Positions 1-5,479 of a DNA stretch of 5,479 bases are shown here, piece after piece. This DNA comes from a virus (Duplodnaviria > Heunggongvirae > Uroviricota > Caudoviricetes). The notes under the pieces were generated by a model. That model saw only the letters and a list, made by a program, of their open reading frames with translations, had not been told where the DNA came from and ran no database searches. Where the stretch lies: IMG/VR virus record IMGVR_UViG_2529293142_000013, positions 1 to 5,479 of that record. One strand, written 5' to 3'. Each line of letters opens with the position of its first letter. The stretch's first letter is position 1. The position numbers were made by a program, and so were the translations under genes.

Positions 1-244
1 TGCAGTCTGTCTTGGAAAGAAAAATTACGTGTTCTTCGGTAGCGATCACGGCGGCGAGCGTGGTGCACTGCTGTACGGGCTGATCGGCACCTGCCGTCTG
101 AACGGTATCGATCCGGAAGCGTATCTGCGCCATATTCTGAGCGTACTGCCGGAATGGCCCTCCAACCGTGTTGACGAACTCCTGCCATGGAACGTAGTTC
201 TCACCAATAAATAAGCGTCAATACGGTGCTCCGTTGACGCTTAC
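1..244 (+). mobile_element. Right end of an IS66-family insertion sequence (partial); terminus ...TTGACGCTTAC at 234-244
   Basis: Transposase stop at 212-214 is followed by a 9-bp inverted repeat AAGCGTCAA (213-221) / TTGACGCTT (234-242). Read inward from the end the terminus is GTAAGCG..., the start I recall for IS66-family inverted repeats. From 245 the sequence reads as the reverse complement of the lambda cII ribosome-binding region (GTAAGTATTTCCTTAGATAAC), so the junction is placed at 244|245. Confidence 0.65.
2..214 (+). CDS. IS66-family transposase (TnpC-like), C-terminal portion; 5' end lies outside the window
   Basis: Open frame runs from the window edge to TAA at 212-214. Translation ...KKNYVFFGSDHGGERGALLYGLIGTCRLNGIDPEAYLRHILSVLPEWPSNRVDELLPWNV matches the conserved C-terminal pattern of IS66-family transposases as I recall it (FxGSDxGGER...LNGxDPxAYL...ELLPW). 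Recognised from memory, not searched. Confidence 0.8.
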   Translation, partial: AVCLGKKNYVFFGSDHGGERGALLYGLIGTCRLNGIDPEAYLRHILSVLPEWPSNRVDELLPWNVVLTNK

Positions 245-321
245 GTAAGTATTTCCTTAGATAACAATTGATTGAATGTATGCAAATAAATGCATACACC
301 ATAGGTGTGGTTTATTTTGAT
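245..321 (-). terminator. tR1-like region between nutR and the (disrupted) cII start, with palindromes at 278-297 and 296-308
   Basis: Position is equivalent to lambda tR1 (rho-dependent). Palindromes GTATGCA-AATAAA-TGCATAC (278-297) and ACACC-ATA-GGTGT (296-308) are visible. Function inferred from position only. Confidence 0.4.
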
Positions 322-353
322 GCCCTTTTTCAGGGCTGGGATGTGTAAGAGCG
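322..353 (-). promoter_or_regulatory. nutR N-utilisation site: boxB 322-336, boxA 345-353 (read on - strand)
   Basis: Reverse complement of 322-336 is GCCCTGAAAAAGGGC, the lambda nutR boxB hairpin. Reverse complement of 345-353 is CGCTCTTAC, the boxA consensus. Lies immediately downstream of cro in the direction of pR transcription. Confidence 0.85.
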
Positions 354-361
354 GGAATGTC

Positions 362-1714
<1,353 letters not shown>

Positions 1715-1764
1715 TCCCCACCTCAATCTCGATAACAAAAAAACAAACTATTTTCCGTTTAAAA

Positions 1765-1832
1765 ACAATGGAGTTTGTTTTTCACGCCCCTTTTTACAAT
1801 ATTTCTTGTTTACAACATACAATCTTCCTTGT
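1765..1832. promoter_or_regulatory. 434-type left operator: OL3 1765-1778, OL2 1796-1809, OL1 1819-1832
   Basis: Three ACAA-N6-TTGT sites: ACAATGGAGTTTGT, ACAATATTTCTTGT, ACAATCTTCCTTGT. The last is the reverse complement of ACAAGGAAGATTGT, recalled as 434 OL1. They lie upstream of nutL and N. Confidence 0.85.
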
Positions 1833-1838
1833 AATTTT
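1806..1838 (+). promoter_or_regulatory. Candidate pL promoter; hexamers uncertain (best guess -35 TTTACA 1809-1814, -10 TAATTT 1832-1837)
   Basis: A promoter must lie within OL2/OL1 to drive nutL-N. The proposed pair has a 17-bp spacer but a weak -10. An alternative -10, TACAAC at 1811-1816 just upstream of OL1, cannot be excluded. Confidence 0.4.
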
Positions 1839-1877
1839 AAGCCATCAGCAGGACGCACTGACCACCATTGAAGGTGA

Positions 1878-1908
1878 GGCTCTTAAAAATTAAGCCCTGA
1901 AGAAGGGC
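1878..1908 (+). promoter_or_regulatory. nutL: boxA-like GGCTCTTAA (1878-1886) and boxB GCCCTGAAGAAGGGC (1894-1908)
   Basis: boxB is an exact 15-nt match to the lambda nutL boxB hairpin (5-bp stem, GAAGA loop). The boxA-like element lies 8 nt upstream. Confidence 0.85.
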
Positions 1909-1926
1909 AGCATTCAAAGCAGAAGG

Positions 1927-2044
1927 CTTTGGTGTGTGTGATACGAAACGAAGCATTGGCCGGAAGTGCGAATCCGGATTAGCTGCCAATGTGCCATTGC
2001 GGGGTGTTTTCGTTCAGGACTACGACTCCCACACACAACCAAAG
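1927..2044 (+). promoter_or_regulatory. Structured N leader: long-range inverted repeat CTTTGGTGTGTGTG (1927-1940) / CACACACAACCAAAG (2030-2044), plus inner hairpin CCGGA..TCCGG (1960-1977)
   Basis: Inverted repeats seen directly. Equivalent to the RNase III-sensitive stem in the lambda N leader that modulates N translation (established for lambda, inferred here). Confidence 0.6.
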
Positions 2045-2065
2045 CTAACTGACAGGAGAATCCAG

Positions 2066-2389
2066 ATGGATGCACAAACACGCCGCCGCGAACGTCGCGC
2101 AGAGAAACAGGCTCAATGGAAAGCAGCAAATCCCCTGTTGGTTGGGGTAAGCGCTAAACCAGTTAACCGCCCTATTCTCTCGCTGAATCGCAAACCGAAA
2201 TCACGAGTAGAAAGCGCACTGAATCCGATAGACCTTACGGTGCTGGCTGAATACCACGAACAGATTGAAAGCAACCTGCAACGTATTGAGCGCAAGAATC
2301 ATCGAGTTTGGTATAGCAAGCCAGGTGAGTTCGGTATAACTTGTCAAGGAAGACAAAAGGTTAAAGGGGAATCCATTCCATTGGCATGA
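2066..2389 (+). CDS. N: Antitermination protein N (107 aa), lambda type
   Basis: MDAQTRRRERRAEKQAQWKAANPLLVGVSAKPVNRPILSLNRKPKSRVESALNPIDLTVLAEY... contains the arginine-rich boxB-binding motif and matches lambda N apart from a few substitutions near the C-terminus. AGGAG at 2054-2058 precedes the ATG at 2066. The track's 1934 start is a leader extension. Confidence 0.95.
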   Translation: MDAQTRRRERRAEKQAQWKAANPLLVGVSAKPVNRPILSLNRKPKSRVESALNPIDLTVLAEYHEQIESNLQRIERKNHRVWYSKPGEFGITCQGRQKVKGESIPLA

Positions 2390-2397
2390 GGTACGTA

Positions 2398-3267
2398 ATG
2401 AAGAAGATTGATTACAAGTCCATACCAAAACCAATAGACTCAGCATCAGAGCGAAAAAAACACAAAAAAGAGGCTGAAAAATTAGCAAATTATATCAGTT
2501 TTATTAGAAACAATGCTCACGGCGATGGCGACAAGAAGTTGCTTTCAGATGCTCGGACCCAAGCGTTCGGTATACTTCGTAAGCAGATGCAATATCGTCT
2601 TCATCCTGGCTACATAATTGAAATTCGCCCTACTGAAAGACAATTGTTCTTATTAAACTCTGTCTTTGACTTTGTAAACGTAGTTGGAGATCTTATCGAC
2701 AGGTCTGTAGATAAGGATCCTGATACAAATAGTTTTCTTCTAACAAATAAAGAATACTTATATGGTAAATTCGGTATAAACGGATGGCAAAAATATGTAC
2801 GCTTCTTACGTGCATTCGTTGATGCGTATAAAAATTCCGACATGATTTATACATATTTGCCTGGTGGTGATAATTGTACGCTTTCGGCAGACAATAGAAT
2901 ATTCATACCTGTACTTGGTCTTGGGCTGATTAATGCAGTAAATGAAAAAGATGTTATAATTGTTAAGCAGTGGCGAAAATATGAGGGATATAGATATCTG
3001 CCATGCTTTGATATATTAAAAATACAGAATAAATTCTATGTAAAAATTAAATATAAAGAAGATATTTTCTTCCTCAGAAAAAACATAGATCTTTTACAAG
3101 AACTTTCTGGTACAATAGATGTCATCTTAGGTTCTAGGTTTATAAAAGAACTGAAAGAAAGCAGGTCTTTCTCTCGTGTAGAGATAAGCGAGTCAGAGTT
3201 ATGGGGTATATCAAATAATCCTGTAAACCACGCTCACCAACGAAACCCAAACAAAAAGTGGTCATAA
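2398..3267 (+). CDS. Hypothetical protein (289 aa; 293 aa if started at 2386), AT-rich cargo gene in the position of the lambda sieB-ral module; function unknown
   Basis: Long uninterrupted ORF directly after N. ATG at 2398 is preceded by GAGG (2388-2391) with a 6-nt spacer; the alternative ATG at 2386 overlaps the N stop (ATGA). G+C is visibly low (sampled stretches about 17-30 percent) against roughly half in flanking phage genes. No Walker, HTH, transmembrane or known nuclease motif seen by eye. Confidence 0.8.
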   Translation: MKKIDYKSIPKPIDSASERKKHKKEAEKLANYISFIRNNAHGDGDKKLLSDARTQAFGILRKQMQYRLHPGYIIEIRPTERQLFLLNSVFDFVNVVGDLIDRSVDKDPDTNSFLLTNKEYLYGKFGINGWQKYVRFLRAFVDAYKNSDMIYTYLPGGDNCTLSADNRIFIPVLGLGLINAVNEKDVIIVKQWRKYEGYRYLPCFDILKIQNKFYVKIKYKEDIFFLRKNIDLLQELSGTIDVILGSRFIKELKESRSFSRVEISESELWGISNNPVNHAHQRNPNKKWS

Positions 3268-3407
3268 CCCGCTCAGGCGGATTTCATTTTCACGCAAACA
3301 ACAGAATAAACACAGCGCTGTGTATTCATTCCAACGAGTGAATACACGGAGCAATGTCGCTCGTAACTAAACAGGAGCCGACTTGTTCTGATTATTGGAA
3401 ATCTTCT

Positions 3408-3436
3408 TTGCCCTCCAAGATGAGGGCGATTTTTTA
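3408..3436 (+). terminator. Intrinsic terminator candidate upstream of ea10
   Basis: Stem GCCCTC (3410-3415), loop CAAGAT, stem GAGGGC (3422-3427), extendable by two pairs, followed by a run of six T (3430-3435). Confidence 0.6.
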
Positions 3437-3455
3437 TCTGTGAGGATATGAACAG

Positions 3456-3824
3456 ATGTCAAACATCAAAAAATACATCATTGATTACGACTGGAAAGCA
3501 TCAATAGAAATTGAAATCGACCATGACGTAATGACAGAGGAAAAACTTCACCAGATTAATAATTTCTGGTCAGACTCTGAATACCGACTCAATAAACACG
3601 GCTCTGTATTAAATGCTGTATTAATCATGCTGGCGCAACATGCTCTGCTTATAGCAATTTCAAGCGACTTAAATGCATATGGTGTTGTGTGTGAGTTCGA
3701 CTGGAATGATGGAAATGGTCAGGAAGGATGGCCTCCAATGGATGGTAGTGAAGGAATAAGAATTACCGATATCGATACATCAGGAATATTTGATTCAGAT
3801 GATATGACTATCAAGGCCGCCTGA
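3456..3824 (+). CDS. ea10: Ea10 (122 aa), lambda early-left protein
   Basis: Translation MSNIKKYIIDYDWKASIEIEIDHDVMTEEKLHQINNFWSDSEYRLNKHGSVLNAVLIMLAQHALL... matches lambda Ea10 as recalled. The 369-nt length and the 72-nt spacing to cIII match lambda. Confidence 0.92.
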   Translation: MSNIKKYIIDYDWKASIEIEIDHDVMTEEKLHQINNFWSDSEYRLNKHGSVLNAVLIMLAQHALLIAISSDLNAYGVVCEFDWNDGNGQEGWPPMDGSEGIRITDIDTSGIFDSDDMTIKAA

Positions 3825-3849
3825 GCGCGGCGTTACCGCATACCAATTA

Positions 3850-3870
3850 CGCTTCACTCGAGGCGTTTTT
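3850..3870 (+). terminator. Intrinsic terminator candidate between ea10 and cIII
   Basis: Stem CGCTTC (3850-3855), loop ACTC, stem GAGGCG (3860-3865) with one G-U pair, then five T (3866-3870). Confidence 0.5.
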
Positions 3871-3896
3871 CGTTATGTATAAATAAGGAGCACACC

Positions 3897-4061
3897 ATGC
3901 AATATGCCATTGCAGGGTGGCCTGTTGCTGGCTGCCCTTCCGAATCTTTACTTGAACGAATCACCCGTAAATTACGTGACGGATGGAAACGCCTTATCGA
4001 CATACTTAATCAGCCAGGAGTCCCAAAAAATGGATCAAACAATTATGGCTATCCAGACTAA
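3897..4061 (+). CDS. cIII: CIII (54 aa), inhibitor of FtsH-mediated CII degradation
   Basis: Translation [54 protein letters not shown] matches lambda CIII. AAGGAG at 3885-3890 precedes the ATG; stop TAA at 4059-4061. Confidence 0.93.
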   Translation: MQYAIAGWPVAGCPSESLLERITRKLRDGWKRLIDILNQPGVPKNGSNNYGYPD

Positions 4062-4173
4062 ATTCACTATCGCCACTTTTATTGGCGATGAAAAGATGTT
4101 TCGTGAGGCCGTCGACGCTTATAAAAAATGGATATTAATACTGAAACTGAGATCAAGCAAAAGCATTCACTAA
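4030..4173 (+). CDS. kil: Kil (47 aa), host cell-division inhibitor
   Basis: Translation [47 protein letters not shown] matches lambda Kil. It overlaps the cIII 3' end and the gam 5' end as in lambda. The track's 3904 start is an out-of-frame overlap with cIII. Confidence 0.9.
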
Positions 4174-4544
4174 CCCCCTTTCCTGTTTTCCTAATCAGCC
4201 CGGCATTTCGCGGGCGATATTTTCACAGCTATTTCAGGAGTTCGGCCATGAACGCTTATTACATTCAGGATCGTCTTGAGGCTCAGAGCTGGGCGCGTCA
4301 CTACCAGCAGATAGCCCGTGAAGAGAAAGAGGCAGAACTGGCAGACGACATGGAAAAAGGCCTGCCCCAGCACCTGTTTGAATCGCTATGCATCGGTCAT
4401 TTGCAACGCCACGGGGCCAGCAAAAAAGCCATTACCCGTGCGTTTGATGACGATGTTGAGTTTCAGGAGCGCATGGCAGAACACATCCGGTACATGGTTG
4501 AAACCATTGCTCACCATCAGGTTGATATTGATTCAGAGGTATAA
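4128..4544 (+). CDS. gam: Gam (138-aa long form), RecBCD inhibitor; internal start at 4248 gives the 98-aa GamS form
   Basis: Translation [85 protein letters not shown]... matches lambda Gam. AGGAG at 4236-4240 precedes the internal ATG at 4248. Confidence 0.95.
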
Positions 4545-4549
4545 AACGG

Positions 4550-5335
4550 ATGAGTACAGCACTCGCAACGCTGGCAGGGAAGCTGGTTGAACGTGTCGGC
4601 ATGGATTCTGTCGACCCACAGGAACTGATCACCACTCTTCGCCAGACGGCATTTAAAGGCGATGCCAGCGATGCGCAGTTCATCGCATTGTTGATCGTCG
4701 CCAACCAGTACGGCCTTAATCCGTGGACGAAAGAAATTTACGCCTTCCCTGATAAGCAGAACGGCATCGTTCCGGTGGTGGGCGTTGATGGCTGGTCCCG
4801 CATCATCAATGAAAACCAGCAGTTTGATGGCATGGACTTTGAGCAGGACAATGAATCCTGTACATGCCGGATTTACCGCAAGGACCGTAATCATCCGATC
4901 TGCGTTACCGAATGGATGGATGAATGCCGCCGCGAACCATTCAAAACCCGCGAAGGCAGAGAAATCACGGGGCCGTGGCAGTCGCATCCTAAACGGATGT
5001 TACGGCATAAAGCTATGATTCAGTGTGCCCGTCTGGCCTTCGGATTTGCTGGTATCTATGACAAGGATGAAGCCGAGCGCATTGTCGAAAATACTGCATA
5101 CACTGCAGAACGCCAGCCGGAACGCGACATCACTCCGGTTAACGATGAAACCATGCAGGAGATTAACACTCTGCTAATCGCCCTGGATAAAACATGGGAT
5201 GACGACTTATTGCCGCTCTGTTCCCAGATATTTCGCCGCGACATTCGCGCATCGTCAGAACTGACACAGGCCGAAGCAGTGAAAGCTCTTGGATTCCTGA
5301 AACAGAAAGCCACTGAGCAGAAGGTGGCAGCATGA
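4550..5335 (+). CDS. bet: Bet (Red-beta, 261 aa), single-strand annealing recombinase
   Basis: Translation [99 protein letters not shown]... matches lambda Bet almost exactly as recalled. GAGG precedes the ATG at 4550. Confidence 0.97.
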
Positions 5336-5479
5336 CACCGGACATTATCCAGCAGCGTACCGGGATCGACGTGAGAGCTGTCGAACAGGGGGATGATGCG
5401 TGGCACAAATTACGGCTCGGCGTCATCACAGCTTCAGAAGTTCATAACGTAATAGCAAAACCCGCCCGGAAAAAAGCGG
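5332..5479 (+). CDS. exo: Exo (lambda exonuclease / Red-alpha), N-terminal portion; 3' end lies outside the window
   Basis: ATG at 5332 overlaps the bet stop (ATGA). Translation [44 protein letters not shown]... matches the lambda Exo N-terminus. Confidence 0.9.

Follow-up and report, generated by a model that had tools for sequence, protein, structure and literature searches.

An IS66-family insertion sequence in the cII leader of a lambdoid prophage with phage 434 immunity

When an insertion sequence (IS) is found at the place where the cII gene of a lambdoid prophage should follow its leader, has the DNA beyond it been deleted to leave a remnant, or has an element simply been inserted with the replication genes still lying on its other side? 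The question is raised by the window, which is the whole stretch of DNA that was analysed (5,479 nucleotides, positions 1 to 5,479 of IMG/VR virus record IMGVR_UViG_2529293142_000013), with a + strand that carries a lambdoid early region inverted relative to the usual lambda map and begins within an IS. The features of the window are listed here with the strand where one is assigned.

1..244, + strand, right-hand part of an IS66-family insertion sequence, 244 bp, the remainder being beyond the window
2..214, + strand, 3' end of tnpC, last 70 codons with the stop at 212-214, Pfam DDE_Tnp_IS66_C
221..244, + strand, right terminal inverted repeat ATACGGTGCTCCGTTGACGCTTAC, from the inverted-repeat pair in L002
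245-353, cII leader, tR1 and nutR, adjoining the IS fragment of 1-244
245..252, right copy of the target-site duplication GTAAGTAT, 8 bp, the left copy being read in L034
254..257, - strand, orphaned cII ribosome-binding site AGGA with the IS now in place of cII, from the phage 434 annotation (L003 3010-3013)
262..353, - strand, tR1 region and nutR with boxB (322-336) and boxA (346-353), all intact, from the 434 annotation with an offset of 2756; the placement of tR1 within this interval is our assumption from lambda rather than from annotation
362..577, - strand, cro of phage 434, 71 aa, Pfam HTH_3, no nucleotide difference from the 434 record
592..655, OR1-OR3 with pR and pRM, from the phage 434 annotation
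628-633 and 605-610, - strand, -35 and -10 of pR, from annotation, with a promoter scan finding 633->605
681..1313, + strand, cI repressor of phage 434, 210 aa, intact, Pfam HTH_3 and Peptidase_S24
1310-1714, hex, then OL, pL and nutL
2066-2389, N
2398-3267, ORF of 289 aa, followed by ea10-like, cIII, kil and gam
4550-5335, bet, with the start of exo beyond

The identity of the element is clear from both its coding sequence and its end. Translation of window 2-214 (+) matches the transposase domain DDE_Tnp_IS66_C (PF13817, E 1.9e-17), and the 84-aa tnpC fragment on contig L030 matches PF03050 as well as PF13817, with only the C-terminal part visible in the interrupting copy. Three complete E. 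coli genomes hold IS66-family copies that match window 1-244 at 100% identity, and in 991 records the identity is 99% or more (E 6e-124, far beyond chance), thus the preliminary description of this DNA, made from the sequence alone, was right to see an IS66-family end here. A full-length copy of 2501 bp is found at L002 1744-4244, where PGAP annotates tnpA, tnpB and tnpC, with terminal inverted repeats GTAAGCGTAAACC.../...GTTGACGCTTAC and the 8-bp duplication TGATAAAA on both flanks. As the L002 copy has both the terminal repeats and the flanking duplication, the tip of the IS can be fixed at window 244; the IS end in the window finishes ...GCTTAC, and the reverse complement of window 238-244 is GTAAGCG.

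The features that define the IS66 family include terminal repeats starting 5'-GTAAGCG (PMC12888890). Such repeats are present at both ends of the element, the left end on contig L034 being GTAAGCGTAAACC, and together with the transposase C-terminal domain and an 8-bp duplication they are what the window element has in common with the family. The order tnpA-tnpB-tnpC is seen in L002, whose 244-bp right end matches identically. The element is therefore a classic IS66-family member in the features tested, the three-gene layout being known only from another copy whose ends are identical. Among the E. coli elements of this family, copies that PGAP calls 'IS66-like element ISEc23 family' share about 95% identity with the 3' end of tnpC. 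The assembled parts of the copy in the cII leader are a TnpA N-terminal fragment by the left end (L034 1-169, PF01527) and the TnpC C-terminus, and the genes of the IS point in the same direction as cI, that is antisense to transcription from pR.

Phage 434 sequence (OL657226) begins at position 245, with 100% identity over window 245-700 (E given as 0), which bears out the earlier claim that phage-derived DNA begins there. Between 263 and 3700 the window departs from the 434 record at just two positions, 1805 and 3086. Phage 434 shares cro, OR, cI, hex, OL, nutL, N and the 289-aa ORF with it, but has an uninterrupted cII leader. An imm434-type immunity region, with 434 cI, cro and OR/OL operators, is thus confirmed. 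The earlier statement that cI and the two cargo genes are intact is also supported, with cI, cro, hex and N identical to those of 434 and the 289-aa ORF intact with its single nucleotide difference at 3086; this ORF is the one named 'Nun C-terminal peptide-containing protein' in the 434 record. Position 1805 falls within the annotated OL2 interval and is C in the window and in every aligned prophage relative, and A in 434. The gene hex is the repressor-protection gene of phage 434, its ATG overlaps the stop codon of cI (ATGA, 1310-1313), and in many public annotations a 103-aa form is called rather than the 134-aa form.

Past about position 3700 the recombination region follows E. coli prophage relatives, at 99.9% identity. 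The entire phage portion has counterparts in the prophages of 103 complete E. coli genomes, with identities of up to 99.9%, and all of the relatives examined have cII, O and P directly after cro. Other IS traffic into this prophage family can be seen, with an IS3-family element lying between kil and gam/bet in a prophage of the same type (L001 7977-8459, NZ_CP027219) and at the same place in several O103-type and related complete genomes. The far end of the window, 5463-5479, carries two single-base deletions and a substitution inside exo compared with all ten closest relatives; these last 17 nt look like a poor-quality contig or read end and not a real frameshift. From its odd length of 5479 the window may be a complete short contig that is delimited by the IS repeat.

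The breakpoint itself can be placed to the nucleotide. The 434 annotation puts the start codon of cII at the window equivalent of 240-242, with its ribosome-binding site falling on window 254-257, so that the IS tip lies 2 nt upstream of the expected cII ATG; the preliminary description, which had put the IS end at the position of the start codon, was off by no more than 2 nt. The window has ...GACGCTTAC / GTAAGTATTTCC at the place of ...GAACCATAT / GTAAGTATTTCC in relatives without the insertion, the slash marking the junction. The octamer next to the tip, GTAAGTAT, is the target and lies 2-10 nt upstream of the cII ATG. Window 240-249 forms a perfect 10-bp palindrome, CTTAC/GTAAG, across the junction of IS and phage, and the target matches the tip of the element itself, GTAAGCGT, at 6 of 8 positions. 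This likeness is probably a coincidence, since two other targets of the element (TGATAAAA and AAACATGC) have no likeness to its tip.

Taken by itself the window, which starts inside the IS, is compatible with the deletion endpoint that the preliminary description had offered as an alternative, or more broadly with a junction made by IS-mediated deletion or rearrangement, in which cII, O and P were lost or inverted and a truncated prophage remnant was left. A simple insertion with an 8-bp duplication makes a different prediction, that an in-frame ATG in the left end of the IS should lie 14 codons before the cII ATG. The predicted chimeric protein of 111 aa, MATYGGRFTLTYLH+CII, has an exact match in the protein collection on one contig only, L034 (AFDY02000073.1) of assembly GCA_000225185.3. 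It is from this same assembly that the right-junction contig L030 (AFDY02000002.1) comes, which matches window 1-5462 without a difference and extends 287 nt into the IS. The left side is thus inferred from another assembly that has the same junction and 5.4 kb of identical sequence, the window itself stopping inside the IS; the DNA of the window probably comes from the strain of this assembly or from a close relative.

At the left junction L034 reads ...TTGCGTTTGTTTGCACGAACCATAT GTAAGTAT / GTAAGCGTAAACC... (that is ...CCATATGTAAGTAT / GTAAGCGTAAACC, or ...CCATAT GTAAGTAT / GTAAGCG), so the duplication that the preliminary description had asked after is present at window 245-252 and again on L034. 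Removal of the IS and of one copy of GTAAGTAT restores a sequence that has exact matches in five relatives without the insertion (L001, L003, L024, L026 and L027), a comparison that joins two contigs of one assembly rather than reading one molecule, the contigs being linked by the matching duplication and the restored continuity and not by a read across the element. Beyond the left junction L034 carries intact cII, O (299 aa), P (233 aa), ren, ninB, dam, ninE, ninF and ninG, and after ninG a phosphatase gene, lpxR, ylcG and Q; the genes from cII to ninG and Q have the same lengths as in IS-free relatives, and the nucleotide identity to an IS-free relative is 99.97%. The ATG in the left inverted repeat of the IS adds the 14 residues MATYGGRFTLTYLH to CII in frame (L034 223-558), the gene call at this place in the public contig is the 111-aa chimera, and neither ATG is preceded by a Shine-Dalgarno motif.

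The same duplication at both ends of the IS, with cII-O-P-nin-Q directly beyond the left junction, argues for simple transposition. Very probably a single IS66-family element entered a resident phage-434-immunity lambdoid prophage at lambda attB, duplicating GTAAGTAT with no loss of phage DNA. A deletion endpoint is hard to reconcile with a perfect 8-bp duplication next to full-length cII, O, P, ren, nin genes and Q in the assembly that also holds the right junction, and we regard it as very unlikely. The insertion unit is presumably one left and one right inverted repeat about 2.5 kb apart, the length, integrity and single-copy nature of the element being assumed. What the preliminary description had said of cII, O and P being parted from pR, cro and nutR stands, with the former lying across an IS of about 2.5 kb, and to its question whether they resume beyond the element the answer on L034 is that they do. 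The IS would then sit between pR, cro, nutR, tR1 and the cII Shine-Dalgarno sequence on the side of the window and cII, O, P, ren, the nin genes and Q on the far side.

How widespread this junction is was also considered. The exact junction 24-mer and a relaxed 22-mer have no match in GTDB species-representative genomes, the cII-leader junction sequence has none in IMG/VR or in JGI metagenomes, and a hypothetical left-junction 22-mer has none in metagenomes; none of the complete E. coli genomes has the cII-leader junction. The exact Cro protein occurs in 26,547 index blocks and is too common to trace the junction. The Bet allele of the window is rare (69 contigs), and its look-up led to draft assemblies with the prophage at lambda attB, int adjoining a pectinesterase gene.

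These assemblies bear on whether the junction is real at all. In short-read assemblies IS copies are places of breaks and occasional misjoins, and a window whose final 17 nt resemble a poor contig end might be suspected of having a repeated IS end chimerically joined to a prophage contig. However, an identical right junction is found in at least two independent assemblies, on L030 and on L031 of the second assembly, GCA_002133845.1. Two further contigs, L032 and L033, end 17-18 nt before the junction, and three private SNPs are common to L030, L031 and these two. There is moreover the reciprocal junction with its matching 8-bp duplication, which a random misjoin would not give at the exact tips of the IS. 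An assembly artefact is thus scarcely credible, and the insertion is one inherited within a small clade of draft genomes.

The pR operon of this prophage type has been hit by the same IS more than once. In a sister strain (GCA_900016065.1) a copy with the same orientation interrupts O near codon 105, 690 bp from the insertion in the cII leader, with its right junction on L028 (1-310) and its left junction on L036 (230-340); it is also seen on L035 (GCA_900016095.1). P and the nin genes are intact past this insertion, and none of the complete E. coli genomes has the O junction. By comparison with lambda, the element in O would lie about 30 nt upstream of the first ori iteron. Seen from its right end only, L028 looked like support for a deletion, as an identically oriented end of this IS lies there 690 bp deeper in the operon, which resembles nested adjacent deletions. 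But the matching 8-bp duplication AAACATGC is present on a second contig of its own assembly, and the insertion in O is therefore a second, independent simple insertion.

A nested deletion in which the window junction was derived from the O insertion of L028 was rejected on the ground that each insertion has its own target duplication; SNP sharing, which does not group L028 with the clade of L030-L033, also disfavours it. In all, three 8-bp target duplications were read for this element, GTAAGTAT for the copy in the cII leader, TGATAAAA for L002 and AAACATGC for the copy in O. The recurrence in the pR operon gives a modest hint of either selection against lytic replication, a taming of the prophage, or a regional preference of the element, two events establishing neither.

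The point of insertion may also alter the promoter for repressor establishment. The duplicated octamer contains AAGTAT (window 247-252), 17 bp from the pRE -35 that is annotated in 434, and from this spacing and the textbook lambda pRE we take AAGTAT to be the -10 hexamer of pRE. Because the duplicated octamer carries this hexamer, the left junction (L034 253-330, reverse strand) keeps the whole predicted pRE, TTGC-N6-TTGC with a 17-bp spacer and AAGTAT, which now faces the IS in the sense direction for tnpA-tnpB-tnpC and, beyond these, for anti-cro and cI. The copy on the side of the window has lost the -35 and the CII site. A promoter scan found no hybrid outward promoter made of TTGACG in the IS end (234-239) and phage sequence, the spacing from TTGACG to AAGTAT being 7 bp. 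It might be imagined that IS66 elements are targeted to this place or favoured there by selection, for instance because they tame lytic replication, and that the transposase has possibly come under a lysis-lysogeny regulator of the phage, although we consider this improbable. A literature search gave nothing usable on the sequence details of pRE or on the classical IS insertions r14 and r32 of lambda.

What the insertion does to the prophage can be proposed from lambda genetics. On the left side 10 nt of the native cII leader are kept, preceded by IS sequence in which there is no Shine-Dalgarno-like motif, and for this reason the synthesis of CII should fall, and with it the establishment of lysogeny that depends on pRE and pI. 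With cII separated from its ribosome-binding site and from close coupling to pR, the establishment of lysogeny would be expected to be impaired. As evidence against its own reading the preliminary description had named an intact cII directly beyond the IS together with retained expression from pR; the first of these is found, while direct, pR-driven and Shine-Dalgarno-dependent expression of cII is not retained. Maintenance of repressor from pRM should be unaffected as pRM and cI are unchanged from phage 434.

The effect on the replication genes is less easily predicted. O and P of the lambda type have no promoter of their own and depend on pR, thus in this prophage a transcript would have to traverse the IS, about 2.5 kb of antisense RNA that is not translated, before it reached them. 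Polarity would be expected to be strong without N and to be tolerated by an N-antiterminated polymerase. In the full IS copy the strand read in the pR direction showed no intrinsic terminator, therefore any block would be one of Rho-dependent polarity. It is quite possible that this polarity blocks O and P, so that the simple insertion has left a fixed and non-inducible remnant, a reading to which we give somewhat less than an even chance. The dependence of O and P on pR is in its favour, the added 2.5 kb or so of untranslated RNA should be a good substrate for Rho, and two independent IS insertions in the pR operons of sister strains would fit selection for the loss of lytic replication.

Against this, N-modified polymerase overrides the polarity of IS insertions in classical lambda genetics, and N, nutL, nutR and boxA are all intact, with N, nutL and nutR unchanged from 434. 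With these intact and with no intrinsic terminator in the IS, N-antiterminated read-through to O and P is plausible. Nor is there any truncated early gene on either side, from int to cro on L030 or from cII to Q on L034. The conclusion of the preliminary description that the prophage is probably defective does not follow from such a set of genes. The prophage may be better regarded as attenuated, or altered in its regulation, than as demonstrably dead; an attenuated prophage that is defective in establishing lysogeny and possibly still inducible, and a non-inducible one, are roughly comparable in likelihood.

For annotation, the locus would be described as a full-length imm434 lambdoid prophage with an IS66-family insertion in the cII leader, interrupted rather than truncated and not a remnant. 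It offers an example of how an IS may alter the regulation of a phage without breaking an ORF, with the ribosome-binding site of cII lost, pRE redirected and O and P distanced from pR, and of how a junction hidden by the breaks of short-read assemblies can be recovered by way of a predicted chimeric ORF. It matters little beyond annotation at the level of the strain. IS insertion into lambdoid prophages is commonplace, and this is an ordinary strain-level event in which nothing departs from known biology.

A parallel comes from E. coli O157 Sakai, a genome with many IS-marked prophages, where ISEc8 interrupts nu1 of prophage Sp4 (PMC2669165). A lambdoid prophage was hit in that case too, but a packaging gene was destroyed, whereas the IS at the start of the window lies in an intergenic leader with all ORFs intact. 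ISEc8 is, we assume, also a member of the IS66 family. The older parallel is with lambda itself, as IS1 and IS2 insertions in the cII-O region of lambda were among the first IS elements described. The classical polar insertions there, in the literature of the 1970s, are reportedly r14, an IS1, and r32, an IS2. In these an IS likewise lies between pR and the replication genes and is polar on O and P with relief by N, as is proposed for the IS described here. They differ in that they belong to other IS families, arose in laboratory selections and lie within or after cII, whereas the present element was found in a natural isolate and lies in the cII leader.
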